DNA from: an uncultured Chloroflexia bacterium
Lineage (GTDB): Bacteria > Chloroflexota > Anaerolineae > JAAYZQ01
Assembly (NCBI GenBank): GCA_963700285.1
Contig: CAVOXA010000014.1
Coordinates: forward strand, 128,001-192,000
Reading direction: 5' to 3'
Length of the DNA: 64,000 bases
Below the pieces are notes generated by a model. The model saw only the letters and a program-made list of their open reading frames with translations. It searched no databases and had not been told where the DNA came from. Below are positions 2,814-40,163 of this stretch, piece by piece. Positions within the stretch are counted from its first letter, which is position 1. Each line of letters opens with the position of its first letter. The translations under genes and the position numbers were made by a program.

Positions 2814-2999
2814 TCAGCGTCTCGTTGTACGCTCAATAAAAAGCCAACCATTCAGAGAGGAGGTGAACAGGCGGTCCCTGGACCCAAGCCCCATCCCGGG
2901 AAGGCGGTGATGCTGTCTATCCGACCGTCCCTACGGGCTACCGCACCCGTCTATCGTTATCTGTCCACCAAGCACATCAAACTGAAGGAGGAGCTTAAA

Positions 3000-4905: not shown

Positions 4906-4951
4906 GCGCCTGTGACTGCAAGGGAAGCAGTTACCCCTAGCTAACCGATAG

Positions 4952-4992
4952 AAAGTGGTCTACGGCGCCCGCCAGGGCCCGTAGACCACTTT
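4952..4992 (+). terminator. Intercistronic stem-loop after SBP gene
   Basis: AAAGTGGTCTACGG...CCGTAGACCACTTT 14-bp inverted repeat. Confidence 0.65.
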
Positions 4993-5013
4993 GTTCTTCA
5001 GAATCGAGGCAGC

Positions 5014-6031
5014 ATGGGAAGATACATCGTTCGCCGCATACTGACCGCCATCCCCACCCTGTTGGTCATCAGTTTTGTCATCTTTGCCATCCTGGACCTG
5101 GCGCCCAACGATCCCACCGGCAACCTGCCCCTGACCATCCCGCCGGAGGTCCGGGCCCAGATCCGGCGAGTCGTTGGGTCTGGGCCAGCCCATGCACATC
5201 CGCTACGTGAAATGGCTGCGCCAGTTCTTTGTCAACGAGCCGCTGAACATCATCGAGCAGCTCACCGGCGTCGAGATCGGCGACTCGGCGAACCGCCTGC
5301 GCGTCAGATCGTGGGCCACCCGCAGCCCGGTCATCGATCTGATCATCGAACGCCTGCCGCAGACCCTGTGGGTCATAGGCTTGTCCTATCTCTTCTCGAT
5401 GCTAATCGCCATCCCCATTGGCGTCATTTCGGCCTACAAGCAGTACTCTGTCTTTGACCAGGCCGGGACCTTTGTGGCCATGATCGGCTTTTCGGTGCCC
5501 ACCTTTTTCACCGGCCTGCTGTGCATCATCATCTTTAGCGTCGACCTGGGCTGGTTCCCTTCGATCTATGACACCACCCTCAAAGTCACCGATTTTGACA
5601 GCTTTATCCAGCAGATCAAGCAGTTGATCATGCCCGTGACCGTGCTGGCCTTTTTCCAGGCGGCCCAGTTGAGCCGCTACACACGCTCCTCGATGCTGGA
5701 CAACCTCGAGTCGCGACTATGTGCGCACCGCCCGTTCCAAGGGGCTGGGTGAGCGGGTCGTGCTGATGCGCCACGTCCTGCGCAACAGCCTGATCCCGGT
5801 GGTGACCCTGATCGCCCTGGGCATTCCCGGCCATCTTTGGCGGAGCCATCATCACCGAGCAGATTTTTCGCGTCAACGGCCTGGGCTCACTTCTCATCAT
5901 CGCCATCCAGGGGGCCGACATCCCTCTTGTACAGACGCTGACCTTTATTTTTGCCGTCCTTATCGTGCTCGTTCAACATCGTGGCCGACGTGCTCTACGG
6001 CGTCCTGGATCCGCGGATCCGTTACGACTAA
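5014..6031 (+). CDS. Peptide ABC permease, OppB/DppB-like (frameshifted)
   Basis: [10 protein letters not shown] start; [21 protein letters not shown] loop; DPRIRYD C-terminus. Confidence 0.88.
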
Positions 6032-6039
6032 AAAGAGTC

Positions 6040-6134
6040 AGTCCTCGGAGGTCTCTGTCTGGCGTGCTCTTGCCTCAAGTTGAGGCTCCCGCCACGGCAC
6101 AGCGACCGGCGTGAGAGCAGGACCTCCGAGGTCT
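6040..6134. repeat. REP-like palindrome doublet (AGACCTCCGAGGTCT family)
   Basis: gtcctcggaggtct at 6041 and gacctccgaggtct at 6121; same family at 14545, 51096, 58976. Confidence 0.7.
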
Positions 6135-6157
6135 TGTTGAGAATACGAGGTAGTACC

Positions 6158-7084
6158 ATGACTGCCGAGACTGTCAAAGCCAAGACCGTAACCGATTTTG
6201 CACTGCGCAAGCACCGCTCGCTCTGGGGTGACGTCTGGACACAGTTCCGCAAACACAGACTGGCCATGATCGGTCTGGCTACCTTCATCCTTCTGATCCT
6301 GTTCTCATTCATCGGCCCGCTGATTTACCAAGGGGATCCAGACTATATCGATTTCAACGTGGCCCACCAGGGGCCGAGTCGCGAGCATCCCATGGGTACC
6401 GACCACCTGGGGCGCGACATGATGGCCCGGACCATGTACGGCGGCCGGATCTCTATCGCGGTGGGCATCGTGGCCATGCTCATCGCCATCGTCGTGGGCG
6501 CCGCTCTCGGCGGCCTGGCTGGCTTCTTTAACAGACTGGACGGCCCGCTCATGCGCGTCACCGACATGTTCCTGGCGCTGCCCCTGCTGCCCCTGCTATT
6601 GGTGATCATCCTTCTGTTTCGCGACACTTTGAGAGCGGCCTTTGGGCCAGAGATGGGCATATTCATCCTCATCGTGTTTGTCATCGGCATCCTCAACTGG
6701 ATGGCCACGGCCCGCGTCGTCCGCGGCCAAACGCTGTCGGTCAAGGAAGAGGAATTTGTTACGGCGGCCAATGCCGTCGGCACCCGGCAAACCCGCATCC
6801 TGAGTCGCCACGTCTTCCCCAATGTGCTGAGCCCCATCATGGTCGCCGCCACGCTGGGTGTGGCCAACGCCATCCTCACCGAATCCGCCCTCTCCTTTCT
6901 TGGCCTGGGCTTCCCCTCCGACTTTCCGACCTGGGGCCGGCTGCTGTACGACGGCAAGGACTTTTTGGTGTTGAACCCCTGGATGGTCATCTGGCCCGGC
7001 ATCTTTATCTCACTCACCGTTCTGAGCATCAATTTCCTGGGCGACGGTCTGCGCGATGCCCTGGACCCGAGGCTGAGGGACTAG
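6158..7084 (+). CDS. Peptide ABC permease, OppC/DppC-like
   Basis: HPMGTDHLGRD, ESALSFLGLG, GDGLRDALDPR motifs. Confidence 0.95.
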   Translation: MTAETVKAKTVTDFALRKHRSLWGDVWTQFRKHRLAMIGLATFILLILFSFIGPLIYQGDPDYIDFNVAHQGPSREHPMGTDHLGRDMMARTMYGGRISIAVGIVAMLIAIVVGAALGGLAGFFNRLDGPLMRVTDMFLALPLLPLLLVIILLFRDTLRAAFGPEMGIFILIVFVIGILNWMATARVVRGQTLSVKEEEFVTAANAVGTRQTRILSRHVFPNVLSPIMVAATLGVANAILTESALSFLGLGFPSDFPTWGRLLYDGKDFLVLNPWMVIWPGIFISLTVLSINFLGDGLRDALDPRLRD

Positions 7085-7381: not shown

Positions 7382-8170
7382 ATGGCCAAGTGGTTCACAA
7401 ACCTCCAACGCAGACGGATCTGCATCCTTATCGCACTGCTGCTGGGCGCTGTGTTTGTGGCGGCGCTTCCAGGATTCAGGCTTGCGCCTCACGACCTGGG
7501 TTCACCCCGCTCCCTGGCCGCGGATGCCGAGCCCACACCCAGTCCTAACATGGGCATGGGCATGGGCATGATGTCCCCCCACGAACGCCTTTCCCGCCCG
7601 CTGATATCCAAGCCCCCGACCCAGATCGAGCTGGGGCACGCCGAGTACTGGATGTCCTGCATGGTCTGCCACGGCGACCGGGGCCAGGGTCTGACGCCAG
7701 AGTGGCGCAGCGTACTGGACCCGGCCGATCAGAACTGCTGGCAATCCCGGTGCCACGCCGCCAACCACCCGCCTGAAGGGTTCCAGATCCCGCGTGAGTC
7801 GCCGCTGGTCATGGGCACCGGGGCGCTAGCCGGCTACCGGACCGCCACGGAATTATACGAGTACCTTCGTGTGGAGATGCCCTGGTCCTTCCCCGGCCTC
7901 TTTAGTGATGAAAAATACTGGGAGCTTGCCGCCTATCTGGCCGAAACCAACAAGATCGATATCCCTCACAAACCCCTGGGTCCGGATAACGGAAAAGATG
8001 TACTCCTGGTATCGGGCCTCGTCCAGGCCGACCACCAGGGGGTAGGAACAGAGAGGGTTCTAGCTGGCGTCGTGCTCGTGCTGCTGCTGAGCACCCTGAT
8101 TCTGCAGAGATGGACCCGGCGCCCTGAGGTGAAGCAACAACATAGCAGTGAGGTGGATGGCGATAGCTGA
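7382..8170 (+). CDS. Membrane-anchored c-type cytochrome
   Basis: N- and C-terminal hydrophobic segments; CMVCH plus CWQSRCH. Confidence 0.8.
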   Translation: MAKWFTNLQRRRICILIALLLGAVFVAALPGFRLAPHDLGSPRSLAADAEPTPSPNMGMGMGMMSPHERLSRPLISKPPTQIELGHAEYWMSCMVCHGDRGQGLTPEWRSVLDPADQNCWQSRCHAANHPPEGFQIPRESPLVMGTGALAGYRTATELYEYLRVEMPWSFPGLFSDEKYWELAAYLAETNKIDIPHKPLGPDNGKDVLLVSGLVQADHQGVGTERVLAGVVLVLLLSTLILQRWTRRPEVKQQHSSEVDGDS

Positions 8171-8918
8171 GCACGGTCGAGGAACAGGAACCGGGCAGGT
8201 GACGGGGCAAAGAATACGTACCACCTGCAGGCTCGGCGCCTTTGTCATCCTGCCGCTGGTCCTCTGGCTGCCGGTGAGCGTCTCCTTGCCCGGCTTGTTG
8301 GCGCCAACTCCGCTCCACGCCGCTCCCCCGCAGCCTCCCACGTCGAACTCAGACACGATGCCGGGCATGGGTCGCTCGACTGAGCAGAGCGGCGACCGCC
8401 TGGCCAAGCCGGTCCTGCCCGAATCGCCGACCCAGGTCGACGTGGGCCACAGTCTCTACTACTTCCACTGCATGCCCTGCCACGGCGACAGGGGCCAAGG
8501 TCTGACCGATGAATTCCGCGAGGTATGGGTTGAGGACCATCAGAACTGCTGGGGCCGTGGCTGCCACACAGGCAAGTCAGAACAAGCCGCCTTTTACATA
8601 CCAAAATCGGTTCCGCCGGTGAGCGGCGTACCGCAGGCCCTTGGGGCTTTTCAATCGCCGGAGGAGCTGTTCGCTTTTGTGCAGGGTACCCAGCCTCCCC
8701 AGCGCCCCGGGGCACTCTCTGAGAGCGAGTACTGGGCGCTGACCGCATTCCTGCTGCACGAGAATGGTCGCCTGCCCACTGGTGGCCGGGTTGGCCCAGA
8801 GGTCCGTGGCGACGCAATCGTCGCCGCTACGTTTGGGCTGGTCCTGATCCTCGTGACCATGGCCTGGACAGGCAGGCGAAGACAGGGCATGGTCGCTCAC
8901 CAGCCGGCCGCCAGATAA
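8148..8918 (+). CDS. Membrane-anchored c-type cytochrome, paralog of upstream gene
   Basis: CMPCHGDRGQGLT and CWGRGCH; HGDRGQGLT shared with 7382-8170; start uncertain. Confidence 0.8.
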   Translation: MRWMAIAEHGRGTGTGQVTGQRIRTTCRLGAFVILPLVLWLPVSVSLPGLLAPTPLHAAPPQPPTSNSDTMPGMGRSTEQSGDRLAKPVLPESPTQVDVGHSLYYFHCMPCHGDRGQGLTDEFREVWVEDHQNCWGRGCHTGKSEQAAFYIPKSVPPVSGVPQALGAFQSPEELFAFVQGTQPPQRPGALSESEYWALTAFLLHENGRLPTGGRVGPEVRGDAIVAATFGLVLILVTMAWTGRRRQGMVAHQPAAR

Positions 8919-8946
8919 CGTAGCCAGACAAGGATAGACCTGAAGA

Positions 8947-9453
8947 ATGGACCGTCAAGTTCAGACACCGCAGAACCACACCGACACCGGCCTTGACACA
9001 GACCAGGTAGACCGCCGCAGATTCCTGACCTGGCTAACCCGGGGCTCGCTGGCCGCGGCGGGCGCCCTCGCCATCGGCCAGGTCGTCCGCTTTCTCTCCT
9101 TTGAACCGCCCAATCCTATCTCGAGCATCGTTGCCCTTGGCCTTCCGGGCGACTATCCGCGGGGCACGCTGGTCTATGTTCCTGAAGCACAGGCCTACGT
9201 CGGCCACGATGCGCCGGGCTTTTACGTCGTCGACGCCGTCTGCACCCACCTGGGCTGTCTCGTGGAGCAAGGAGAGGCGGGCGAGTTCGTCTGCCCCTGC
9301 CACGACAGTCGCTTTGACGCCCAGGGAAAGGCCGAAAACGGGCCGGCCACCAAACCTTTGCGCTTCCTTTACATCTGGCTGGACCAGGACGAGGGCCAGT
9401 TGATGGTTGACCGGGCCAATCCGGTGGATCCCGCGGCGCGTCTGGCCATCTGA
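8947..9453 (+). CDS. Rieske 2Fe-2S subunit (Tat substrate)
   Basis: DRRRFL twin-arginine motif; CTHLGC and CPCHDS boxes. Confidence 0.93.
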   Translation: MDRQVQTPQNHTDTGLDTDQVDRRRFLTWLTRGSLAAAGALAIGQVVRFLSFEPPNPISSIVALGLPGDYPRGTLVYVPEAQAYVGHDAPGFYVVDAVCTHLGCLVEQGEAGEFVCPCHDSRFDAQGKAENGPATKPLRFLYIWLDQDEGQLMVDRANPVDPAARLAI

Positions 9454-9480
9454 GATCCCACACGAATCAGGAAGACATCC

Positions 9481-10497
9481 ATGTCCCAGCGCCGTCCCAA
9501 TTTCTACTACCACTTGCATCCCCCGACGATCCCCGCCCGGGAGGCTCGCGCTGTTTACACCTTCGGGTTGGGCGGCATCTCGCTGCTGCTGTTTCTCGTA
9601 CTGGGCATCACCGGCGTGATCGAGATGTTCATCTATGTGCCTGCTCCCGAACTGGCCCACGAATCGATCCGGCAGATCACCTATCGGGCACCCTACGGCT
9701 GGCTGCTGCGCAACCTGCATTTCTGGGCCGGCCAACTGATGGTGGGTACCGTCGTCCTGCACATGGCTCGCGTCGTACTCAGTGGGGGCTACAAGGCAGG
9801 GCGCAGGGCCAACTGGCTCATCGGCGTGGCGCTGTTGTTCCTGACGCTGGTCCTCAACTTTACCGGCTTTGTCCTGCGCTGGGATCAGGACACCTCCTGG
9901 GCGCTCATGGTCGGTACCAACCTAGTGGCGGCCATCCCCGGCCTCGGCCCGGCACTGTACCGCTTTGTAGTTGGCGGAACCACCATCGGCGCCGCGGCCC
10001 TGATCCGCTTCTACACCTGGCACATCCTGGGTCTGGCCCTGCCGGCCCTGCTGCTCACGACGTGGCACCTCTTCCGGGTCCGTCGCGACGGAGGCATCTC
10101 CAGCCGGCAGCGAGCGCCCCGCGTGGGCCGGGAGCGGTTGGTCCGTACCGAGATAACCGCGGCCCTGCTGACCCTGGCCGCCCTGGTCGGGCTCAGCCTG
10201 CTGCTGGACGCGCCCCTGGCTCCCCCCGCCGATCCCACCGCCCTGGTCGCCGAGCCGAAGGCGCCCTGGTTCTTTCTGTGGATCCAGGAACTGCTGCGCA
10301 TCGCCTCGCCCTTCCTGGCCGGCGTGCTGGTGCCGTTGGTTGTTCTGCTGGTGCTGGGTATCTTGCCCTACAGCCTGGACCGCAGCGACCGGGGCATCGC
10401 CCAGTGGTTCAATCGCCCAGGGCGCGCGGCCCAGATCGTCTTTCTGTTCATCCTCGTCGGAGCCGTGCTATTGACCCTGCGCGGTGTACTGCGCTAG
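9481..10497 (+). CDS. Cytochrome b of a Rieske/cytb complex (b6-like plus subunit IV-like, fused)
   Basis: GWLLRNLHFW, VLHMARV, RFYTWH, TWHL heme histidines; KAPWFF at the PEWY position. Confidence 0.9.
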   Translation: MSQRRPNFYYHLHPPTIPAREARAVYTFGLGGISLLLFLVLGITGVIEMFIYVPAPELAHESIRQITYRAPYGWLLRNLHFWAGQLMVGTVVLHMARVVLSGGYKAGRRANWLIGVALLFLTLVLNFTGFVLRWDQDTSWALMVGTNLVAAIPGLGPALYRFVVGGTTIGAAALIRFYTWHILGLALPALLLTTWHLFRVRRDGGISSRQRAPRVGRERLVRTEITAALLTLAALVGLSLLLDAPLAPPADPTALVAEPKAPWFFLWIQELLRIASPFLAGVLVPLVVLLVLGILPYSLDRSDRGIAQWFNRPGRAAQIVFLFILVGAVLLTLRGVLR

Positions 10498-10636: not shown

Positions 10637-11884
10637 TCAGTCGCCAGCTCCCGTCCTGATCACCAGCAGCGCCATGTCGTCAAACTGTGCTGCCCCTGCT
10701 TGGAACTGGCCGACGCGCTCAAAAACCAGGTCACACGCTCCTTGGGCATCCATTGCGCTGGCAGCAAGCATGGTATCCTGGAAACACTTCACCCCAAAGA
10801 ACTCACCAGAGGGCGAGATGGCATCCGTGATGCCGTCGGTGTAGAGGATGAGCAAGTCGCCAGAACCCAGACACACAGCGACTTCCTCAAGTACCACCTC
10901 TTCGACGACGCCCAACGCCATGCCCTCAGCATCCAGGACCTTGCACTCGCCCAGGTCAGCCTGCAAGAGCAGAGGACGATCGTGACCGGCCCTGACGTAT
11001 TGAAGGAGGCCCTGCCCCACATCGAGGACTCCGTAAAAGACGGTGACAAACATGCCAACCTGGCTCATCTCCAGCAGCAGGCAGTTGACATTGAGCAGCA
11101 CGGACCGGGGCGAGGGGTTGCGTTGGGCTTCGGCCCGGATCAAACTCCGGGTGAGGGCCATGAACAGCGCCGCGGCCATGCCCTTGTCCGACACGTCGGC
11201 CATCACCAGACCCACACGCTGGTCGCCCAGGGGGAAAACGTCATAAAAGTCACCGCCTACCTGCCTCGCGGGCCGGTAGCGGGCCGCACATTCCAAGCCC
11301 GGCAGGCGCGGGAATGCGCGGGGCAGGAAGCTGTGCTGGATGCCGCGGGCAAGCTCCAGCTCCCGCTCCAGGCGCTCCTTTTCCACCAGTTGGGCCTGAG
11401 CCTCCTCCAGTTCGCGAAAGGCCCGGGCCAGCTCCTCGTTCTTGCGCTGCAGATCGGCGATCATCTGCTGGTCTGACTCCCGCAGCCGGGCGCTGAGTAC
11501 CTGCATCGTACGGTACATCAACTGGGGCTGTTCCGACAGCAGGGAGTTCATGCCCGCTTCGGAAAGCTCCAGCAGCGTCGTGGGCTCCAGGGCGCGGATC
11601 GTGGCCGAGCGTGGCCGGCCGTCGACGAGGCCCATCTCGCCAAAGATCTGCCCTGGACCGCGTCTGCTCAGGACCATCTCTTCAGCGCCCTGCCCTTTGA
11701 CCACTTCGACCTGCCCTTCCACGATTATGTACACTTCACGTCCGGCGGTTCCCTCCCGCACGATCGTTTGCCCCGGCGCAAAGCTCCGCTCCTGCGCTGT
11801 CTCGGCCACCCATTCTAGCAGCTCCGGTCCAGCACCTTTCAGAAAGGGTACCTGGATCAAGACCTCCCTATCGAGCCTGGTCAT
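10637..11884 (-). CDS. cNMP-binding domain + coiled coil + PP2C/SpoIIE-type Ser/Thr phosphatase
   Basis: FGEMGLVDGRPRSAT cNMP cassette; VGGDFYD, ADVSDKG, YTDGITDA, DDMA PP2C motifs. Confidence 0.92.
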   Translation of the reverse strand: MTRLDREVLIQVPFLKGAGPELLEWVAETAQERSFAPGQTIVREGTAGREVYIIVEGQVEVVKGQGAEEMVLSRRGPGQIFGEMGLVDGRPRSATIRALEPTTLLELSEAGMNSLLSEQPQLMYRTMQVLSARLRESDQQMIADLQRKNEELARAFRELEEAQAQLVEKERLERELELARGIQHSFLPRAFPRLPGLECAARYRPARQVGGDFYDVFPLGDQRVGLVMADVSDKGMAAALFMALTRSLIRAEAQRNPSPRSVLLNVNCLLLEMSQVGMFVTVFYGVLDVGQGLLQYVRAGHDRPLLLQADLGECKVLDAEGMALGVVEEVVLEEVAVCLGSGDLLILYTDGITDAISPSGEFFGVKCFQDTMLAASAMDAQGACDLVFERVGQFQAGAAQFDDMALLVIRTGAGD

Positions 11885-15200: not shown

Positions 15201-15682
15201 AGGCCACCGATGGTGAATTGCCTTTGCAGAAAAGACTGCCAGACCCGGGCCAGACGGTATTGGGGACGGCGTCTCAGCAGGCGGCCCCGCACCCGCTGGT
15301 AGACGTTGACCGGCCGCTCGCTGAGCAGCAGGCCAGCTTTGAGCCCCTCTACCAGGGCGGCCACACGAGCAAAGGCAAAGGAACCATATTCAAGAAAGTA
15401 GGCAACGACCAGGTCCTTGACCGTGCGGCGGCCATCCATCCGCTCCCACAAGAAGTGGTCCCGGTCGCTCAGGCGGTAGTAGGTCTTGGTGGCTGGATTC
15501 TTCAAGACATAGTACACGCCATCGCGCCCTGTCAGGCGGCTGGCTATCACGCCCGGCGCCGCCTGGGGTCGGTATTGGGCCATCTCCAGCTTTTCGTACA
15601 GCCAGGCCTTCAGGCCCAGCCAGCCCTGATCGGGCTGGCTGGTCTCTTGCCGCAGCGTGTCCCAGAGGGAGGTTGCTTCCAT
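12287..15682 (-). CDS. Fusion: PqqD/RRE-like domain + M50 zinc metallopeptidase + multi-TM block + two cNMP-binding domains
   Basis: N-terminal YYVLKNP..YYRLS..FLWERMDGRRTV (PqqD-like pattern); HEMAH, AGP, NLNPLLELDGYY (M50); FGELALLHDAPRNAT and VGEIALLLQVPRTAT (cNMP). Confidence 0.85.
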   Translation of the reverse strand: MEATSLWDTLRQETSQPDQGWLGLKAWLYEKLEMAQYRPQAAPGVIASRLTGRDGVYYVLKNPATKTYYRLSDRDHFLWERMDGRRTVKDLVVAYFLEYGSFAFARVAALVEGLKAGLLLSERPVNVYQRVRGRLLRRRPQYRLARVWQSFLQRQFTIGGLDRALSGVYRRVGGLLFARPVLILYLLVTVLGFYAFVQALRGGQYGVVTIAGSIALGMMGLIVANLFAVLIHEMAHALTVKHYGREVRRGGFMIYFGMPAFFVDTTDIWLEGKRARLAVTWAGPYSGLILGGLASIVLFLWPAFALNPLLFQFAFLSYLTVFFNLNPLLELDGYYLLMDWLDIPMLRRKSLAFIRGGLWEKVKAVRQEQTSEVSKTSEVSASPKGVLPSFSREEKIFTVFGLLSAAWTAYAILMGAYFWQRRLAGALRDLWTRGGGVGRILLALGLAALSLLLVLSIGLALLSMVRKVVLWAARKGLFANPWNVAALLLAAAVALSLVPAALSYRALTPVIGVAALSIAAFLAWRIASDYAGSRLSPVFWLIGLFSLALVPSLVLIGLVGTGAIAVKEGQPVLPILVAPVAIGLAYLAYGALAVAGLLLFSGAKLKEMSRMGKALLVLGLAGSYGLVLWLVARQQQASPTVAGALLTVSGWLLPLLTLALMAPTLVSFWRTSFGPAWTLLIFSLGGMAVSALTGRVPLLAYLLLAGGLLLHHLAFRSIALLSDQPRAVVDLSDGRRLQRALGWTVSDLVEQFRQIAGDRAARNLVERFNNYALAAGWAVSIVAGQVEEATVSERPLIEQGEIYAAVLGLLLDLTAEEVGEKLAVRSLQRAYDGLPWEEREIGVQYLFREVKRAESLSADFQTVQQDYRRLLQRMPLFATMDGAEVDLVCSRLRVEHHGPGRAVIRQGERGDRFFIVRHGHVEVTQRDERGVSEVVNQLDRGGYFGELALLHDAPRNATCRTTIPTELLSLSRRDFEQLVKARFALRDKVDRSITQVELLRRVPLFAEMGAQQLRLVAAQLQAQTYEPGAALMRQGEMGETFYVIESGRVQVSVGQDGELRVAAERGPGEYVGEIALLLQVPRTATVTALAPTRVLALTKDDFDRLVSEHLYVGRQLERDTSRRLLDLQRVA
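14545..14577. repeat. REP-like palindrome doublet lying in frame inside the M50 fusion gene
   Basis: AGACTTCGGAAGTCT-TGG-AGACTTCCGAAGTCT, read as QTSEVSKTSEVS. Confidence 0.8.
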
Positions 15683-15698
15683 AAGATGTCCAAGACAT

Positions 15699-15727
15699 CG
15701 AGCCGTCCGCACAGTGCGGACGGCTCG
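15699..15727 (-). terminator. 13-bp GC-rich hairpin between precursor gene and peptidase gene
   Basis: CGAGCCGTCCGCA-CAG-TGCGGACGGCTCG; no clear U-tract. Confidence 0.6.
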
Positions 15728-15794
15728 GTGCGGTTGTCAGACCCCCGATAGGCACTGACAAACCTGGGATTGAGGGGAAGAGATAATGTTAAAT

Positions 15795-16067
15795 CTAGAC
15801 GATCTTGAACTCCGGTCCCACCATAGGACCGGCGTCGACGCTGCCAAAGGCCACCATTCCGGCAAAGTCCATTTTGGAGATGCGCTCGTCCAGAGTACCG
15901 GCCAGCGTCTCCATGGTCTCTGCGTCAAGACTCTTCAGTGCGGCCACCTCCTCGTCCGTCAGCTCAAAGCCCGCCAGCGCCTCCTCGGGGCTGGCAAACA
16001 GAGCCTCGCGAAAGTCTTTCTCCAGTACTGCCTTGCCGATGACAGTTTCCACAGCTTCCTTGGACAT
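15795..16067 (-). CDS. NHLP-clan (Os1348/Franean1_4349-like) RiPP-type precursor peptide B, 90 aa
   Basis: AAAGGAG RBS; MSKEAVETVIGKAVLEKDFREALFASPEEALAGFELTDEE leader; leader ends LDERISK; 25-aa tail. Confidence 0.8.
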   Translation of the reverse strand: MSKEAVETVIGKAVLEKDFREALFASPEEALAGFELTDEEVAALKSLDAETMETLAGTLDERISKMDFAGMVAFGSVDAGPMVGPEFKIV

Positions 16068-16128
16068 GGTACACGCTCTCCTTTTCTTGAGTTTGGTCTC
16101 TCGGCCTGATGGGCTCAAATCTGACCTC

Positions 16129-16194
16129 ATTCTACAGCACAACCGGGCTCCTGTCTATGACCGCCTTCACAGGCTGACTGTGACCTGCGTCACA
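16129..16194 (-). promoter_or_regulatory. CRP-dependent promoter of precursor B: -10 plus two CRP boxes
   Basis: -10 TAGAAT (16134-16129); TATGA-N6-TCACA 16156-16171; perfect TGTGA-N6-TCACA 16179-16194. Confidence 0.85.
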
Positions 16195-16201
16195 GTATCG
16201 C

Positions 16202-16822
16202 TCAGCGGCGACAACCAATGTCCGCCAGCAGAACTTCTAGGGCCGCGATGTTCCGCTGCTTTCCCGTCCCGCGAAGGGCCCGCGCTGCCCCGGTAAAGTA
16301 GGTGTGTTCTCGAAGGAACTGGAGTTGGCGGCGATACCAGGCTTCCTTACCCAGCCGCACACCGTGCGCCGCCCACTCGGCACGCAGCGCCTCACTCTGA
16401 ACCAGGCCATCCTCCCGCCCCAGGCTATCGAGGTCAGCATCGGCCAGGATCTCTTCTAGGGACGTAAGGGGTCGCTGCGGCAGCCTGGTGGCCAGGATCA
16501 GCCCCTGGACCACGGACACCTGTTTTGGCGTGAAACCAAAGCAGGGCAGGACCAGGACCACGATCTCGGCGCCGGCCCGTTCGTGGTCGTGGTACTGGAA
16601 CAAGAATCCAATGTCATGATAGGCCGCGGCGATTTCGATGAGCCGGGTCTCATCCTCATCCATGCTGCTGGCCGCCGCCAATCGCAGGGCTGCGGGCAGC
16701 ACGTCATCGTTTGTATGGGAAAAGTTGTGGTAGGTCAGTTCCGGAGCCAGTTCGCTTTGCAGGCGGTCCAGCGCATAGCGCTTGGCAGCCTCAAAATCGG
16801 ACTGGCGGTGAGGGTAGCGCAT
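16202..16822 (-). CDS. HD-domain metal-dependent phosphohydrolase
   Basis: YHNFSHT, AAAYHDIG, ADADL motifs; start could be further upstream (ORF to 16909). Confidence 0.88.
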   Translation of the reverse strand: MRYPHRQSDFEAAKRYALDRLQSELAPELTYHNFSHTNDDVLPAALRLAAASSMDEDETRLIEIAAAYHDIGFLFQYHDHERAGAEIVVLVLPCFGFTPKQVSVVQGLILATRLPQRPLTSLEEILADADLDSLGREDGLVQSEALRAEWAAHGVRLGKEAWYRRQLQFLREHTYFTGAARALRGTGKQRNIAALEVLLADIGCRR

Positions 16823-17157
16823 GGCTTCCCGGCCAGCTCCTGCCCACGGCTCTCCGCTCAGAATCTGCCAGCCGGTCACGGCCTCCGGATCCGTTCCCTG
16901 GATAGCCATTGCGCAGGAATGCAGATCATTGGACGCTCACGCGGCAGCCCTCGCCCTTCGCTGCGCATCGACCGCAGTCCACGCATGGGATCCATGTGCG
17001 CTGGAGGGCGCACTTGGAGGCCCGCCCGAGCTTGGCGCAGGAAAGGCACGGGTCTGTGACCCGGCCTGAGGGAATTCGGACGGGCGAGCCGGTGTCATTA
17101 GCCGGCACAGGTGCCGGGGGAGGGAATGCGGCAGCACATGAGTCCGATGCAGGTCTT

Positions 17158-17448
17158 CTATGTGACCTCAATCAGGGACGCCCTGCCCATGTCACCCGAC
17201 TCGCCGGCCCACAGCCCGTTCCAGCCGTAGCTGAGCACGCCCTGGTAGTCACTCTTGGAAATGCGCTCGTCCAGGATGCCGGCAAACGACGCAATGGCCT
17301 CGGCATCGATGGTCTTCAGAGCGGCTGCTTCCGCCTCGGCCAGGTCGTAGCCGGCCAGTGCCCGGTCGGGATCTATGAAGAGGAGGTCGCGGAACTCGCG
17401 GTCCAGCACTGCCCTGCCGATAACGGCCTCTACGGCTTGCTTTGACAT
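17158..17448 (-). CDS. NHLP-clan (Os1348/Franean1_4349-like) RiPP-type precursor peptide A, 96 aa
   Basis: AAAGGGG RBS; MSKQAVEAVIGRAVLDREFRDLLFIDPDRALAGYDL leader; LDERISK; 31-aa tail; collinear with precursor B. Confidence 0.8.
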   Translation of the reverse strand: MSKQAVEAVIGRAVLDREFRDLLFIDPDRALAGYDLAEAEAAALKTIDAEAIASFAGILDERISKSDYQGVLSYGWNGLWAGESGDMGRASLIEVT

Positions 17449-17532: not shown

Positions 17533-17598
17533 AGTATAACGCACTGCCGGACTGTGGGCCATGAACTGCGTCACATCGTTGCTGTTAACTGGGTCACA
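17533..17598 (-). promoter_or_regulatory. CRP-dependent promoter of precursor A: -10 plus two CRP boxes
   Basis: -10 TATACT (17538-17533); CATGA-N6-TCACA 17560-17575; TGTTA-N6-TCACA 17583-17598. Confidence 0.8.
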
Positions 17599-17616: not shown

Positions 17617-17658
17617 CAAAACGAAAGGGATGGAAACAGCAGAACCGTTTCCATCCCT
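17617..17658 (-). terminator. Rho-independent terminator downstream of the CRP gene
   Basis: AGGGATGGAAAC...GTTTCCATCCCT 12-bp stem, then TTCGTTTT on the minus strand. Confidence 0.7.
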
Positions 17659-17776
17659 CACAGGCACAGCACCGTCTATTTGCTTATGACAAGATCATCT
17701 CGCGCTTCAGAGAGTGGCCGGGCTCTCCCCCCTGAGCGGCAACAGGGTTGGCGGCTTCGCAGGCGTCTCGGTCCCA

Positions 17777-18478
17777 TCAATACAGGATCCTTCTCTCCAA
17801 TCCCTGCCGGTCCAGAATCGTGACCCGATGCCCCTCGATCTCGATCAGCCCCTGGTCCCGGAAGGCGCCCAGTACCTTGTTCACCCTCTCCCGGCTGGCT
17901 GCTACCCAGGTGGCCAGCTCGGTCTGGGTCAGGCGGAGATCGATGGCGACAGTCTCATTGCCTTGCTCCCCTTCCTGTCCCTCCCGCCCGTAGCGCTCGG
18001 CCAGCTCCAGGAGCTTGGCCGCTACCCTGCCATAGACGTCGAGAAAGGACAGGCTCTCAACATAGGCAGTGGTATAGCGGACTCGGGCGCTCAGAACCTC
18101 CAGGATGCTTCTGGCCATACCGGGGCAGGATTCCAGGTGCCGCAAAAAGTCGTCTCGGCTCAGGGTCAGCGTCACCGTCTTTTCCATGGCCACCGCCCCG
18201 GCCGAACGCGGCAGGCCGTCGAGCAGTGCCAGCTCACCAAATACCTCACCGGGGCCGTAAACGTTGACCGAAATCTCCTGACCAGACTCGCTGATGATAA
18301 AGATGCGGACCTTGCCCGATTCGATGACGTACAGACTGTGGCCCCGGCCGCCCTTGTGAAAGATGATCATCCCCTTGCCAAAGGTGCGTTTCCCCAGGCT
18401 GCCGGCCAGGGTCTCCAGATTTTGGTCAGAGACTCTGGCAAAGAACGAAACGTTCCGAAGCTGATCCACCTGGGACAT
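17777..18478 (-). CDS. Crp/Fnr-family cNMP-binding transcriptional regulator
   Basis: FGELALLDGLPRSA cNMP cassette; LTQTELATWVAASRERVNKVL HTH with CRP-type R-E recognition residues. Confidence 0.95.
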   Translation of the reverse strand: MSQVDQLRNVSFFARVSDQNLETLAGSLGKRTFGKGMIIFHKGGRGHSLYVIESGKVRIFIISESGQEISVNVYGPGEVFGELALLDGLPRSAGAVAMEKTVTLTLSRDDFLRHLESCPGMARSILEVLSARVRYTTAYVESLSFLDVYGRVAAKLLELAERYGREGQEGEQGNETVAIDLRLTQTELATWVAASRERVNKVLGAFRDQGLIEIEGHRVTILDRQGLERRILY

Positions 18479-18879
18479 TCACACCTCCCGCGCGCGCTGC
18501 AAGCGATTGGAATGCTCCTATTCTAACACACAACAGCAGAAAACAAAACCACTACTCTCATTTCCCGTGTCGCCGTGGGTCGAAGGCATCCCGCGGTCAA
18601 TCGCCCACAAAGTCTAGGGACGTCGTCAACAGCGCACAGTGGTCGCACTCAAGCTCCCGGCCTAGGGCCCAGGTCAAGAACACGACAAGCCCTGCCCGAT
18701 ACCCCACTGAATGTTTTCGAGCAGCGTCGCGCTTGAGAGAAGGCGCAGGATCGCCCCGGCGATGGCGACCACCAGGTCCAGGGCTGTGATGGCCTGATTG
18801 GTCGGATAGATGGGGTCGATAGGGGTGCGTCCCGGGGCGTTACGTCACTCGGCTTCGTCGTGTCGCACCTCTTCGATTG

Positions 18880-19481
18880 AGATTCACCTGCTGGTGTATC
18901 CACTCCGGCACCGGATAGCGGTTGAGGTGATGCTTGAGCAGGGTTAAGGGCACGATCAGTGGCACCAGCCCCTGCCGGTAGTCCTCGATGAGGCCCAGGA
19001 GTTCCTGCTTATCTTCGCTGGAGAGGTCATTCTTGAGGTAACCCATCAGGTGCTGGAGCACGTTCACATGCTTGCCCCGCGTGCCCAACACGGCGAGGCC
19101 CTCCATCAATTGAGCGCCGTACTCTGCGGTCAATTCGTCCCAGTCCCGCTTGCCCGCATCGGCGACCAGGCGGCCCATCTCAGTGTAGTGTTTGGGACTA
19201 TGGGCCATCAGCGTCATCTTGTGCGCCGTATGGAACTTGACCAGGCCACCTGGCGTCGGCTCCTCGTCTAGCATTCGAGTCCAGCGATAGTAGGCGAACA
19301 CCCGCTCGACAAAGTTCTCGCGCAGCGGCAGGTCGTTGAGCCGTCCCTCCTCCTCCAATGGCAGCAAGGGGAACCGGTTCATCACCTCTCGGGGGAACAT
19401 GCCCGTGCCGTTGCGCTCGGCCATGCCATGTGGATTGTACACTTTCACGCGAAATAAGCCTGAACTTGGCGAATCCTTCTT
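18880..19481 (-). pseudogene. DUF1722/YbgA-like gene fragment, copy A (truncated at both ends)
   Basis: KKDSPSSGLFRVKVY...LKHHLNRYPVPEWIHQQV; near-identical to 22738-23424 but lacks start and final residues. Confidence 0.85.
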
Positions 19482-19602
19482 ATAAGACTGGACACAAACG
19501 ACAAATCCAGCTGGCCAATGAACTGACTCTGACAACTAGAATCAAGCTCCGGAGGCTCTGCGACTGAGACCTGTTACTACGCGTGGTCGGCTCCAGAGAT
19601 AG

Positions 19603-20676
19603 CTATGCCCCAGACTCAAAAACCTCTGCCGCGCGGCGCATCTTGGCGATGATATCAACATCAAATGGGCAACGCTCGAGGCACACCTCGCATTCGATGC
19701 AGTCCGATCCCGTAGCCGGGAGCGACGCATACCACTCCCGATTCGCCTGCTGGTGAAGCGGCGTAAGTCCGTAGTACTCGACGTAGTTCAGATAGTAGAT
19801 GACGCTAGGAATGGGGATGTCCTGTGGGCAGGGGAGGCAATGTTTGCAGCGCACGCACTGCCCGCGGAGCCAGTACTTGAGATCGTCGTGCAAAGGGGTG
19901 GCCCGTTTCTCCTCCGCGGATGCCGTCAGATAGCTGAGGGCCTGCCGCGTCTGATCGGCATTCCGGGGGCCGGGCACGGCAGCGGCGACTCCCTGTGACA
20001 GGACATAGTGCAAGCACTGGGCCGGCGTGATGCCGGTCGGGGTGCCATCTCTCTGCAACAGCACGCCACCGTAGTAGGGCTTCATGGCGACGACGCCAAC
20101 CCCGTACTCTGCGCAGGTCTCCAGAAGTGCGGCTCGCTCCGGGTCCCCGTGGTGTTGATACAGATTGACCGGGAACATGAGGACATCGATGAGGCCCGAT
20201 TCGATGGCCATGCGGGCCACAGCCGGATTGTGGTTGCTGAGACCGATAAAACCGATCCGCCCGTCGCGTCGGAAGCGATCCAGTCGTTCGATTCCCTGCG
20301 CCGCCCAGTTCTGCCACAACGATTCGGTATCGACCATGGTGAGCATTGCGATCTCAGCGTAGCCGTTTCCCAGGAGGCTGAGTGCCTGATCGAAGCAGCG
20401 CTGGCAGCGGTCAACCGGTTCGTGGTAGATGAACCCCCAGTGTAGGCAGAGCACCAGACTCTCGCGAAATCGGCGAATGGCTGGGCCGATAGCCTCCCAA
20501 TAACCGGCATGGCTTTCCAAGGGGTCGTTGTAGACCAGATCGATGTAGTTCACGCCCGCTGACAGGGCTAGGCCGAGCACTGCATCCATGTTCTCAGAGC
20601 TCTCGATCAGGTGCTCAGTGCCTAGCCCGATCACACCGACCTCGAGTCCTGTCCTACCCAGAGTTCTGGTTTCCAT
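19603..20676 (-). CDS. Aldo/keto reductase with C-terminal 4Fe-4S dicluster
   Basis: RTLGRTGLEVGVIGLG, GVVAMKP; CVRCKHCLPCP and CIECEVCLERCP. Confidence 0.9.
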   Translation of the reverse strand: METRTLGRTGLEVGVIGLGTEHLIESSENMDAVLGLALSAGVNYIDLVYNDPLESHAGYWEAIGPAIRRFRESLVLCLHWGFIYHEPVDRCQRCFDQALSLLGNGYAEIAMLTMVDTESLWQNWAAQGIERLDRFRRDGRIGFIGLSNHNPAVARMAIESGLIDVLMFPVNLYQHHGDPERAALLETCAEYGVGVVAMKPYYGGVLLQRDGTPTGITPAQCLHYVLSQGVAAAVPGPRNADQTRQALSYLTASAEEKRATPLHDDLKYWLRGQCVRCKHCLPCPQDIPIPSVIYYLNYVEYYGLTPLHQQANREWYASLPATGSDCIECEVCLERCPFDVDIIAKMRRAAEVFESGA

Positions 20677-20878
20677 TCTTATCGCAGATTGCCCCCTATT
20701 CTGCTCGTCCAGCTTTCCTGTCCAATGGTAGACCGTCTAGCAAGTACCGAACAGAACACCTCTGCACAAGCAAACTGACCAGATGACCATGAAGAATCTG
20801 CTTGTAGAAGCACCCGTAGCTGGAAAATTCCAGAGATCCTTCAATGCGTCTCCTGGTGGGACTCTATGACCAATTGAC

Positions 20879-20907
20879 ATTGTATCATAGTCTCGCCCCT
20901 TGAGCAA
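20879..20907 (-). promoter_or_regulatory. Putative promoter of the aldo/keto reductase cassette
   Basis: TTGCTC-17-TACAAT with extended TG. Confidence 0.55.
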
Positions 20908-20939
20908 AACCACGTGTGCGGGGACTGGAATGCCACAAC

Positions 20940-21512
20940 TCAGGTGATGCTTCAGCAGCGTCAACGGCACGATCAGCGGCCCAGCCCCTGACGGTAGTCC
21001 TTGATGAGACCCAGGAGCTCCAGCCTACCTTCGGTAGGCCTTGTCATCACTGGAGAGATGGTTCTTTAGTAACCCATCAGGTGCTGGAGCACGTTCACAT
21101 GCTTTCCTCGCGTGCCCAGTACAGCCAGGCCCTCCATCAGCATAGCCCCATACTCGGCTGTCAGTTCGTCCGAGTCCCGCTTGCCCGCGTCAGCGACGAG
21201 GCGGCCCATCTCGGTGTAATGCTTGGGACTATGGGCCATGAGCGTGAGCTTGTGGGCGGTGTGGAACTTGACCAAGCCGCCTGGGGTAGGTTCCTCGTCT
21301 AGCATTCGGGTCCACCGATAGTAGGCAAAGATCCGCTCGATAAAGTTCTCACGCAGGGGCATATCGTTGAGCCGGCCTTCCTCCTCCAAGGGCAGCAGCG
21401 GGAAACGGTTCATGAGCTCGCGGGGGAATATGCCTGTCCCATTTCTCTGCGCCATTCCGTGCTCATTATACACTTTCACACGGAATAAGCCCGAACTTGG
21501 CGAATCCTTCTT
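20940..21512 (-). pseudogene. DUF1722/YbgA-like gene fragment, copy B (degenerate)
   Basis: ORF 21066-21479 matches full copy; frameshifted tail to PLTLLKHHL. Confidence 0.85.
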
Positions 21513-21627
21513 ATAAGACTGGACACAAACGACAAAAAGTCTTCATGCTAACGACCTGCATCCAAGTAATGGGAGAGGCCGAAATAGACTGAACACGTCT
21601 TATAGGTTGAGCAAAACGCAGATGAAA

Positions 21628-21972
21628 CTACATCTGTAGCCCAGATCGCAACAGGTCGATGATTGCCTGGACGATGCTCTGGAGGGTCGCTTGCGAGAGG
21701 TTACCGGCTTCGGATACCATGAGGCTGCTGCTGGCCGTGAACAGCTTGCCAGGACGTGCATAGCTTGTCACCCGAAGGGAGCCTGTATCGAAATCTGCGT
21801 CCGTAAGCTCAACGGCACGCGGGTCTGCGTACGGATTGCTGGTGATCTGGCACAGTATCCAGTCATCCCTGCCAGAGTCAGCCAACACAAGCGCAGGTCG
21901 CAGCTTGGCCTCCGACAGATCCGAGAACGGAAATGGTACAAGCACTATCGAGCCGACTGCAGGTGTGACCAT
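21628..21972 (-). CDS. PemK/MazF-family toxin
   Basis: GSIVLVPFPFSDLSEAKLRPALVL...ILCQITS signature. Confidence 0.88.
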   Translation of the reverse strand: MVTPAVGSIVLVPFPFSDLSEAKLRPALVLADSGRDDWILCQITSNPYADPRAVELTDADFDTGSLRVTSYARPGKLFTASSSLMVSEAGNLSQATLQSIVQAIIDLLRSGLQM

Positions 21973-22166
21973 GCGGCATCTTCCTCTGACCTGTTCCAGT
22001 CCTTGGCCAGTGCTGCCTCGCTGAGCAAGGCCGTTTCAGACACGCCGCTTAGAGGCGCCTCCTCCAAGATTGTCACAAGTGCACGCCGCACAGCCGGCAA
22101 TCGGACTGATTCAAGCAAGCTCACTTTGCCTTGCTCGTCAATCACAGCTTCGATTGTTTTGACCAT
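21945..22166 (-). CDS. Putative cognate antitoxin
   Basis: 73 aa upstream of and overlapping the toxin; acidic C-terminus LSEAALAKDWNRSEEDAAW; own promoter. Confidence 0.75.
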   Translation of the reverse strand: MVKTIEAVIDEQGKVSLLESVRLPAVRRALVTILEEAPLSGVSETALLSEAALAKDWNRSEEDAAWSHLQSAR

Positions 22167-22201
22167 GCCTACCCCTTTCATCGACACTGAACCCTAACCT
22201 G

Positions 22202-22230
22202 ATTATACAACGAATGGCATGGCCGGTCAA
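22202..22230 (-). promoter_or_regulatory. Promoter of the toxin-antitoxin operon
   Basis: TTGACC-17-TATAAT. Confidence 0.7.
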
Positions 22231-22295
22231 CCAACCGAAACAACTTCGCACGCAGGTCAAGGCTCATGTAGACAGTGATGGGTTGATCCATTGGT

Positions 22296-22430
22296 CTACA
22301 CGTGATTGCGCAGCATGAGCTCCTTGGGGTACGGATGCAAGTACGCCTGCTGGTGTACCCAATCGGGAACCTGATAGCGGTCTAGATGATGCTTGAGCAG
22401 CGTCAGCGGCACGATCAGCGGCAGGAGGTC
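22296..22430 (-). pseudogene. DUF1722/YbgA-like 3'-terminal remnant, copy C
   Basis: Encodes PLIVPLTLLKHHLDRYQVPDWVHQQAYLHPYPKELMLRNHV-stop. Confidence 0.85.
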
Positions 22431-22443
22431 CCGCTGACAAGCC

Positions 22444-22725
22444 TCACCCATCTGGGCTCGGAACTCCAGGATACACAGATTGTGGAAGGCTTCTAGCTTC
22501 TGCTGCTGCCTTCTGCAACGCAGCGGCTAGTTGCTCTGCCTGTTCGATGGTCAGCAGGAAGCTCGTCTCATCCGCCTCAAAGAGCCGCATATCCCTCGGC
22601 CCTGACTCATGGATGCGAAACCGGATTTCATCATCCCAACCTTGCTCCCGGTCCGCAGGGTCAAAGTACACTTCGACAGAAATGTTCTCGCCTGCTTGAA
22701 CGATCATGTAGACATCTCGAAACAC
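22444..22725 (-). CDS. Hypothetical protein, 93 aa
   Basis: Clean acidic ORF between full ybgA-like gene and copy C; no motif recognised. Confidence 0.55.
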   Translation of the reverse strand: MFRDVYMIVQAGENISVEVYFDPADREQGWDDEIRFRIHESGPRDMRLFEADETSFLLTIEQAEQLAAALQKAAAEARSLPQSVYPGVPSPDG

Positions 22726-22737
22726 CGCACTACCAGT

Positions 22738-23719
22738 TTAAACATGATTCCTAAGCATCAGCTCCTTTGGGTACGGATGGAGGTAGACCTGCTGGTGCAC
22801 CCAGTCAGGCACCGGATGCCGGTTCAGATGATGCTTGAGCAGCGTCAGCGGCACTATCAGTGGCACCATCCCCTGCCGGTAGTCCTCGATGAGGCCCAGG
22901 AGCTCCTTCTTGTCTTCACTCGAGAGGTCCTTCTTGAGATAGCCCATCAGGTGCTGGAGCACGTTGACGTGCTTGCCCCGGGTGCCCATCACACCGAGGC
23001 CCTCCATGAGCATGGCCCCATACTCGGCTGTCAATTCGTCCCAGTTCCGCTTGCCCGCGTCGGCGACGAGGCGGCCCATCTCGGTGTAATGCTTCGGACT
23101 GTGGGCCATCAGCGTCAGCTTGTGCGCGGTGTGGAATTTGACCAGACCACCGGGCGTTGGCTCCTCGTCTAGCATTCGCGTCCAGCGATAGTAGGCAAAG
23201 ACTCGCTCGATAAAGTTCTCGCGCAGCGGCATGTCGTTGAGGCGGCCCTCCTCCTCCAGCGGCAAGAGCGGGAAGCGGTTCATGACCTCGCGGGGAAACA
23301 TGCCCGTGCCATTGTGCTGGGCCATGCCGTGTTCATTATACACTTTTACACGGAACAGACCCGACGAAGGAGAATCCTTTTTGAACACAAAGCCGTGAAG
23401 CTCGGCGGCAGCCAGCTCTTCCACACGATTCTCGTGCCCAGGCGATCATGGCTTCCGTATGGTCAGTGCCGGACTTGGGCGCTATCAGCCGCGGATGCTC
23501 GCTGTCACCCACCAAGCGCAGGCTCTCCCGTGGGATGGGCAGCCCCATCTCTACCTCCGGGCAGACAGGCACCCACTCAACGAATAAGCCCAGCGTGCCG
23601 GTCAGATACCGGTCCAGTTTGTGCCCGCCGTCAAAGCGTACCTTTTCTCCGAGCAGGCAGGTGCTGATTCCAAGACGAATCGTCGGTCCCTCGATGGGCT
23701 TCTGCTCGACGTTTGCCAT
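22738..23719 (-). CDS. DUF523 + DUF1722 protein (YbbK/YbgA-like), one frameshift near 23425
   Basis: AAGGAGG RBS; GISTCLLGEKVRFDGGH, VCPEVEMGLPIPRE, KKDSPSSG, EEEGRL, YPKEL motifs. Confidence 0.88.
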
Positions 23720-23770
23720 CTGTTCCTCCTTCCCTGTCACGGTGCCGGCCCCATCGGGGGGCAGCTTCGT

Positions 23771-38761: not shown

Positions 38762-38874
38762 CGTACCCCCTCAGCAATGGCAATGCCAGACCGGTCCAAC
38801 CCATTTTACATCAGATCCCGAAATAGGCCAAGGTCCAGTTCCGAAGGCTTGAGCTTGGCGTTCGGCGAATGCCA

Positions 38875-39927: not shown

Positions 39928-40163
39928 GGGTGCGCCCTGGTCATTGCGCTCTGGGTCTAGGACTGGCAGGATCACTGCCACCCTCAACCTAGTCTTTGAA
40001 GAGGACACATGGCAATGCTATCACTGATTGGGTCCCGGGAGTCCCCAGCTTGCTGGGGTTCTTGCCCTCCGGGGACAGTCGCCCAGAGCAGGGCTTTGAC
40101 CTTGGCACAGGCGGACGCCCGGAACCACCACCGAGGGTCATCTATCAGACCAACAGTATCCCA

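Follow-up and report, generated by a model that had tools for sequence, protein, structure and literature searches.

The PF14407 family of peptide precursors was reportedly defined by Iyer et al. in 2009. Its definition drew on ATP-grasp-linked peptides (PMC8939145), and a Pseudomonas representative, Os1348, lies beside acetyltransferase, peptidase and SagB-type genes under the control of GacA (PMC7726476). Classical precursors of the nitrile hydratase leader peptide (NHLP) type, which give rise to peptides made by the ribosome and modified after translation (RiPPs), join a folded leader related to nitrile hydratase to a hypervariable tail (Haft et al. 2010, PMC2887384). In daptide clusters the protease MpaP is described as performing leader-directed removal (bioRxiv 2023.03.08.531785), and SHP peptides are matured by Eep, re-imported and engaged in positive feedback (PMC7564271). 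Here we describe two precursor genes, P1 and P2, on a stretch of 64,000 nucleotides, hereafter the window, from an uncultured Chloroflexia bacterium of the GTDB class Anaerolineae (assembly GCA_963700285.1, contig CAVOXA010000014.1, positions 128,001 to 192,000). By sequence, both belong to the Os1348/PF14407 family and not to the classical NHLP RiPPs or the daptides. They likely form part of an undescribed peptide signalling system controlled by cyclic AMP (cAMP), rather than encoding antibiotics, and the account towards which we lean, by a modest degree, is that cAMP induces a peptide signal which stays unmodified and is set free by a membrane protease dedicated to it. Literature searches (most subscription journals lay outside their coverage) found no published description of such a module, and none revealed a cell-cell signalling mechanism in Anaerolineae.

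Two precursors of the Os1348 type

P1 and P2 scored 84.4 and 74.6 bits against NF038399, the NCBIfam model of the Os1348/Franean1_4349 family (cut-off 40), and 66.2 and 56.9 against PF14407 (cut-off 48), bearing out the NHLP-clan membership proposed in an initial annotation made from the letters of the window. The best PDB match was 6lk7 (E 2.4e-8). Unlike classical NHLP precursors, P1 reached 16.5 bits with TIGR03793, below the cut-off of 50.9, and P2 gave no match. The two 65-aa leaders aligned without gaps, were identical at 39 of 65 positions and both ended in LDERISK, and neither Cys nor Gly-Gly occurred in P1 or P2; the initial annotation had been right on the leader length, the gapless alignment, the LDERISK end and the missing Cys and Gly-Gly.

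A protein search limited to 49-158 aa returned 171 matches, the best 120 of which were used; after addition of P2 and removal of three proteins without the boundary motif, 118 homologues remained. The leader was 65 aa long in 112 of them and AGxLDERISK was near-invariant. Mean identity was 76% for leaders and 16% for tails, so that the tails fell well short of the leaders in conservation; equal conservation would, by the terms of the initial annotation, have refuted its reading. All tails lacked Cys, and GG was found within the last eight leader residues of none (0/118). The tails fell into discrete, recurring types, short and non-repetitive (median length 30 aa) with 21% Gly. Their start was more hydrophobic than the remainder in 113/116, and a hydrophobic tail end was found in 68/116, against a background of 23%.

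The first 10 tail residues of P1 and P2 gave a BLOSUM62 score of 25, reached by 5 of 100,000 shuffles in fixed register; the shared tail start is therefore beyond chance. The initial annotation had read it as a core motif, x-D-[FY]-x-G-[MV]-[VL]-[AS]-[FY]-G. The motif stood in the two tails, and we rejected it as a family-wide core since the strict form occurred in only 7/118 homologues; judged from these sequences it marks one tail type or sub-type. Hydrophobicity of the tails, also proposed initially, held for the start of the P1 tail (Kyte-Doolittle value 1.29 for residues 1-10 of the tail) and failed for that of P2 (-0.4).

Comparison with L042, the closest orthologous locus, separated the two genes. 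The P2 tail was as conserved as its leader (86% versus 87% nucleotide identity), whereas the P1 tail became unalignable exactly after the ISK codon (31%, versus 81% before it). All four tails, those of P1 and P2 and of their L042 orthologues, nevertheless kept G-phi-phi-[AS]-[FY]-G. A paralog at a second locus of the genome (C5, below), which has a protease fusion of its own, is without this motif, and we infer that the partner encoded in the locus selects it. A search of the rest of the genome for silent copies of the tail DNA of P1 or P2 found none, and in an order-wide search a close leader occurred in 4 of 23 genomes.

Hypervariable, Gly-rich tails and their apparent replacement at the leader boundary could also be expected of unmodified membrane-active bacteriocins or kin-discrimination toxins, whose production cAMP and CRP would merely time, and deletion of Os1348 lowered antibiotic activity in Pseudomonas Os17 (PMC7726476). 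Recombinant Os1348, on the other hand, was not antibacterial and its cluster contains modifiers (same source). The tails of both P1 and P2 are net acidic, and acidic repeats of 100-300 aa occur in many homologues. A scan of CRP-type loci, which covered 49 of their 80 unlabelled neighbours, revealed neither a conserved immunity gene nor an ABC exporter, and nearly all partner genes encode cyclic nucleotide (cNMP) signalling proteins. A toxin function is accordingly improbable.

Tandem CRP boxes and RNA evidence

In the CRP-family regulator encoded beside P2 (crp) the cNMP pocket is canonical and the recognition helix has the form RExxxK. P1 and P2 are each preceded by two predicted CRP boxes 23 bp apart, centred near -64.5 and -41.5 and followed by a -10 element. 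In Escherichia coli the CRP consensus is TGTGA-N6-TCACA, and -41.5 is the position of class II promoters. At both P1 and P2 such a sequence lies at an activating distance from the -10 element. The arrangement box, 7 nt, box, 21 nt, TAnnnT was found in 11/11 promoters examined, two pairs of which are orthologues, the second box of locus L057 being more degenerate; this spacing places the proximal box at -41.5. The promoters thus resemble class II CRP promoters and differ from them in the fixed second box 23 bp upstream.

We scanned the 260 nt upstream of all 6,333 called genes of the genome. Tandem boxes (20-25 bp apart) preceded three genes, exactly P1, P2 and the C5 precursor, the three CRP-linked precursors; since this criterion was chosen after these sites were known, the homologous promoters provide the real test. 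A box with at most one mismatch preceded 39 of the 6,333 genes. Among related loci, such a box stood before the precursor in 13/16 containing crp and in 2/48 others, those two being truncated contigs. Single boxes across the whole window were not above chance (3 found, 1.27 expected; 15/100 shuffles reached 3), so the signal lies in position and pairing and not in number. The tandem-box regulon appears limited to precursor genes. These promoter sequences argue strongly that the adjacent CRP, bound to cAMP, would activate both P1 and P2 as the first step of the system.

Four of 15 listed metatranscriptome runs were compared as contigs, the runs having been chosen with this stretch. RNA contigs covered P1 in 3/4 runs (at least 99% identity) and P2, as pieces, in 4/4. 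Over 8.3 kb, 9 of the 11 high-identity RNA pieces of at least 150 nt lay on the two precursors. The P1 contigs of three runs stopped at 16106 on the 5' side, a weak hint for the P1 promoter. A 20-kb control stretch gave 8 pieces of ~150-190 nt in the same four runs, and carry-over of DNA is therefore possible; the contigs show that the precursors are present in RNA libraries and say nothing of level or of gene ranking. At 15874-15920, RNA contigs of another organism in runs X3 and X4 matched the leader end and continued into a different tail, indicating that other tail types occur in the same libraries.

The concentration of RNA pieces on the precursors, the strong hairpin between P1 and the protease gene, and the tandem 5-12-residue repeats, up to 323 aa, in the tails of many CRP-type homologues would suit exported structural material (sheath, matrix or fibre monomers) made in bulk under cAMP control. 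P1, P2 and the 118 nearest homologues, from a search limited to proteins of 49-158 aa, have tails that are short and non-repetitive, and we regard this explanation as very unlikely.

A predicted leader peptidase and a proposed cAMP circuit

The gene following P1 encodes a fusion of a RiPP recognition element (RRE/PqqD), a site-2 protease, a predicted seven-helix bundle, an unassigned domain and two cNMP domains. HExxH and NPxxxLDG were invariant in 23 aligned proteins, and by motif the protease is catalytically intact. With its N-terminal RRE and HExxH site-2 protease the fusion resembles the daptide peptidase MpaP/DapP, in which an RRE is joined to an intramembrane site-2 protease (NF041824; E 1.3e-42), from which it differs in its score (146 bits, equivalog cut-off 300) and in ~660 extra residues. 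The precursors are also unlike those of daptides: an ELExMEAP leader is lacking, P1 ends in Val, and the C-terminal Thr that is invariant in daptides is the last residue of P2 and of only 12/116 tails. Neither the daptide oxidative decarboxylase nor aminotransferase and methyltransferase (Dmp-forming) enzymes were found in the locus. TIGR03896, an NCBIfam cNMP protein tied to bacteriocin-type transport, gave a weak match here. The pocket Arg of the cNMP domains is kept in CRP-linked fusions and lost in most stand-alone ones.

An AlphaFold model of residues 395-875 of the fusion (pLDDT 89) allowed structural comparison. For residues 500-721 all 50 top VIA rows were folds of G-protein-coupled receptors (GPCRs; Z 11.0-8.2, root-mean-square deviation ~4-7), the best of which (Z 11.0, deviation 4.1, 176 aligned residues) falls below the tool's guide of Z 13 for helical bundles and possibly reflects a common helical arrangement. 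Foldseek gave a best E of 0.4 for the bundle, and no seven-transmembrane Pfam family was seen among 45 members. The model is thus suggestive of a GPCR-like domain. For residues 735-872 Foldseek returned no PDB match and the best VIA hit (Z 6.7) led to unrelated folds; an assignment as H-NOX was unsupported (VIA Z 5.4 only). ESM Atlas had no usable match for residues 470-870.

The initial annotation had seen no YcaO, LanM, radical SAM or C39 peptidase-ABC transporter in the window, and wider searches agreed. YcaO and Peptidase_C39 gave no matches in the 89%-complete genome, where positive controls matched; LanC-like proteins gave none either, a weaker result as this search had no positive control; and the 58 radical SAM matches of the genome all lay outside the window. 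In the lack of YcaO, LanM and C39-ABC matches, as in the missing Gly-Gly and Cys, the locus departs from classical NHLP clusters. Radical SAM, ATP-grasp and C1-type accessory genes were found in 0/16 CRP-linked loci besides that of the window and in 15/48 others. Of the 80 unlabelled neighbours at CRP loci, 49 were scanned against Pfam and yielded no RiPP modifier. The locus of the window differs likewise from the Os1348 cluster, its neighbours being CRP, an HD-domain protein, the cNMP-bearing protease and a PP2C phosphatase. The initial statement that no modifying enzyme lies nearby therefore stands as regards modifiers, with the reservation that an RRE-peptidase gene adjoins the precursors, so that they have machinery of the RiPP type, if no modifier, next to them.

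The genome holds seven family members, a count proposed as a check in the initial annotation: four in a cluster on C1, and three in two look-alike CRP-type loci, the window and C5. The C1 cluster (L008:11379-19975, L009:423-1889; G000 C1:1157-1168 kb), as yet uncharacterised, comprises a short RRE-M50 gene, an unannotated accessory gene, four PF14407 precursors, four ApyD-like B12-radical SAM genes and one gene each for a zinc-ribbon and an aspartyl-protease-like protein. Its precursors have cores of 11-13 aa, and by gene content it has a conventional modified-RiPP layout. The C5 locus (L010:6941-17566; G000 C5:259-270 kb) contains genes for an HD protein, an MFS-cNMP protein (split in the assembly; a candidate exporter), CRP, a precursor, an M16 peptidase, a fusion and a zinc ribbon; its precursor has three CRP boxes and a Pro/Lys/Thr-rich tail.

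With C1 in the same genome and of the same leader family, P1 and P2 could be orphan RiPP precursors modified in trans, an option left open initially. Identity of the C1 precursors to P1 is, however, only 35-42%; they come with an RRE-M50 of their own that has no cNMP domains, and they lack CRP boxes. Trans-modification is very unlikely because the same-genus genome G263 (90% complete) keeps the locus with only these two precursor matches, and the CRP loci were free of modifiers as noted. An unmodified signal is the reading that we prefer, and the initial view of P1 and P2 as unmodified signalling peptides rather than antibiotics is partly supported by evidence that the initial annotation lacked: the CRP boxes, the cyclase linkage and the lack of modifiers at CRP loci.

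We propose, with moderate confidence, that after induction the near-invariant AGxLDERISK is held by the RRE of the fusion while the site-2 protease cleaves at K65 or immediately behind it, either ahead of the first ten tail residues, which are hydrophobic and rich in Gly, or within them. The two cNMP domains may, with similar moderate confidence, gate the protease. The freed, unmodified tails would act as strain-variable signals in a cAMP circuit. More speculatively, a tail might be sensed by the seven-helix domain, or, after re-import, by the SBP_bac_5/TPR end of a STAND cyclase; sensing would then close a feedback loop, the HD protein might reset it and the cNMP-PP2C protein might relay the output. 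A fuller version, which we entertain only tentatively, is an autoinducing protease-receptor circuit in which RRE docking, a cAMP-gated cut, GPCR-like tail sensing and the STAND cyclases, CRP and HD protein would make up a class of peptide quorum sensing in Chloroflexota, assembled from RiPP components, whose strain-specific tails are swapped at the leader boundary.

By analogy the system likely works as Eep-matured SHP pheromones do, yet it is not an RRNPP system. As in SHP/Rgg and ComRS quorum sensing, which involves Eep, PptAB and Ami/Opp, a short peptide would be matured by a transmembrane zinc protease, and the peptide gene would be a target of the neighbouring regulator (PMC7564271). It differs in that the regulator is CRP, which would bind cAMP instead of the peptide, that the protease is dedicated, predicted to be RRE-guided and equipped with cNMP domains, and that the leader is a folded domain of 65 aa. 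No RRNPP/TPR-fold regulator was seen in the locus, where the adjacent regulator is CRP and the TPR/SBP5 domains are on cyclases.

Alternatively, the precursors could be cAMP-induced intracellular ligands whose folded leader binds or titrates the RRE-protease or a STAND cyclase, cutting being turnover. Forms with tails of 5-9 aa lie directly beside tandem-cyclase STAND-TPR genes in 10/11 such loci, Os1348 crystallized as a stable homodimer (PMC7726476), and in loci L067 and L128 the leader sits behind an extra N-terminal region after an extracytoplasmic function (ECF) sigma gene. Against this, tails are constrained at both ends and form conserved types, the P2 tail is conserved like the leader in its orthologue, and the protease of the locus keeps its catalytic residues. 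We consider an intracellular role rather unlikely.

Several observations weigh against a released, cAMP-induced signal, including the post hoc tandem-box criterion and the modest GPCR-like Z score given above. A dedicated exporter was not found in the locus, and the 70-aa zinc-ribbon gene of >60 related loci is missing from it. Tail lengths in CRP-type loci range from 23 to >300 aa of short repeats, which is odd for one pheromone class. The HD gene occurs in only 2/16 other CRP loci, and some of the CRP-type loci are close kin (L059/L065, L057/L080) and so not independent. No precursor was found in 44/67 cNMP-fusion loci whose DNA was examined, many on short contigs. In family f73 the RRE-protease is present in 23/25 genomes and the examined fusions stand alone; a fusion can thus exist without a linked peptide, and its prevalence in f73 suggests a conserved role with another ligand.

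Many 'orphan' NHLP-clan precursors without modifiers, and the RRE-site-2-protease-cNMP proteins, gain from the proposal a role that can be tested, and it points to cell-cell signalling in Anaerolineae. If true, a leader peptidase gated by a second messenger and perhaps equipped with a seven-helix sensor would bring a new design to RiPP enzymology and to bacterial signalling alike. The conserved two-box promoter is a ready reporter assay.

Locus layout, distribution and related loci

The operon runs in the order crp, P2, HD hydrolase candidate, P1, fusion, cyclase remnant, cNMP-PP2C (Table 1).

Table 1. Features of the precursor locus and cAMP-related genes, in window coordinates
Feature	Position	Strand	Remarks
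cNMP-binding domain + SpoIIE/PP2C phosphatase	10637-11884	-	candidate cAMP output
Class III cyclase remnant, 28 codons	11967-12050	-	68% identical to the window's cyclase-STAND-SBP5 protein
Fusion, 1131 aa	12287-15682	-	RRE/PqqD + site-2 protease + predicted 7-helix bundle + unassigned domain + two cNMP domains
Fusion, parts			protease H232-E233-H236 + NPLLxLDG; bundle aa ~500-721; domain aa 735-872; cNMP GE.ALL...PR.AT
Fusion, RRE/PqqD	15335-15511	-	PF05402 above cut-off
Perfect hairpin, 12 bp	15700-15726	-	between P1 and protease gene; 15683-15794 folds at z -5.05
P1	15795-16067	-	Os1348/PF14407-family precursor, 90 aa; leader 15873-16067 (65 aa), tail 15798-15872 (25 aa)
Predicted sigma70-type promoter of P1	16129-16157	-	TAGACA-17 nt-TAGAAT, 10/12
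Proximal CRP box of P1	16156-16171		1 mismatch; centre ~ -41.5; overlaps -35 hexamer
Distal CRP box of P1	16179-16194		perfect TGTGA-N6-TCACA; centre ~ -64.5
Stand-alone HD-domain protein	16202-16909	-	candidate cNMP hydrolase; 56% identical to HD domain fused to tandem cyclase elsewhere in genome
P2	17158-17448	-	Os1348/PF14407-family precursor, 96 aa; leader 17254-17448 (65 aa), tail 17161-17253 (31 aa)
Proximal CRP box of P2	17560-17575		2 mismatches; 21 nt before -10 TATACT at 17533-17538
Distal CRP box of P2	17583-17598		1 mismatch
Terminator-like hairpin, 16 pairs	17625-17659	-	after crp, ahead of P2 promoter; z -3.76
CRP-family regulator (crp)	17777-18478	-	cNMP pocket GELAL...PRSA; recognition helix SRERVNK
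Cyclase-AAA_16-TPR-SBP_bac_5 gene	34817-38542	-	in pieces in assembly; in L042 the copy directly upstream of crp shares 84% nucleotide identity with it
Cyclase-AAA_16-SBP_bac_5 gene, intact	43462-47169	-	candidate cAMP source and sensor

ESM Atlas returned only 'HD domain' for the HD protein, so a phosphodiesterase activity is suggested by its cyclase-fused paralog alone. At the position of the cyclase remnant, L042 has a full-length, frameshifted cyclase-STAND-SBP5 gene. Window positions 18840-23740 hold three to four partial tandem copies resembling DUF1722/2-thiouracil desulfurase, between which lie an aldo-keto reductase and a PemK-like toxin-antitoxin pair; this region is part of the ~16 kb by which crp and the cyclase gene are set apart in comparison with L042. 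Frameshifts split several of the window's SBP_bac_5/BPD_transp peptide-ABC genes and one cyclase-STAND-SBP5 gene (2910-7081, 34817-43268), and since similar splits occur in L042, assembly indels are possible. Two c-type cytochrome genes, a Rieske protein gene and a cytochrome b gene (7382-10497) converge on the operon end and are syntenic in L042.

The fusion was found in 27/301 genomes of the class (E at most 1e-60), and a precursor match in 26 of these 27, compared with 147/301 overall; its RRE-protease part occurred in 49/401 genomes of the phylum. Near 7/16 CRP-linked loci lay class III cyclases, most of which also carried STAND together with TPR or SBP_bac_5 domains; per genome, the five genomes checked gave no more than 7-17 cyclase matches. 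In L164-L168, L183 and other loci of the phylum the fusion is full-length and stands alone, its cNMP pockets degenerate, with neither a precursor nor crp linked to it. L068 and L123 represent an ATP-grasp locus type with an RRE-M50-cNMP gene.

The 70-aa Cys-rich zinc-ribbon gene (L044:4590-4802 and >60 other loci) has no Pfam match and stands beside both modified and unmodified RRE-M50 types; L042, like the window locus, is without it, and it occurs twice elsewhere in the genome. In one sub-group, Immune inhibitor A-like proteins with a MAM domain (L091:56-1738, L093:4112-7978, L095:1907-3754) are encoded directly upstream of crp-fusion and are possible extracellular processing proteases.

Precursor variants were of several kinds. 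In L048, L071-L076, L078, L079 and L083, precursors with 5-9-residue tails are convergent with tandem-cyclase STAND-TPR genes and lack CRP boxes, the fusion usually lying elsewhere in the genome; a TPR-ligand sub-system is possible. Tails of 76-323 aa built of 4-12-residue tandem repeats occur in L054, L057, L080, L087, L091, L095, L122, L135, L147, L173 and L175, and could be multi-copy cores or fibre-forming segments. In L109:4860-5699 and L110:3837-4676, between two precursors, a PF14407-like leader is N-terminal to a domain that we take, from its motifs, to be methyltransferase-like. Finally, L067:12486-13529, L128:6698-7928 and L112:7437-7940 each encode, directly before RRE-M50, a protein of 165 aa in which a PF14407 leader is fused to an additional N-terminal region; an ECF sigma gene precedes it in L067 and L128, and our guess is that the protein might be an anti-sigma factor tagged for RRE-guided proteolysis.

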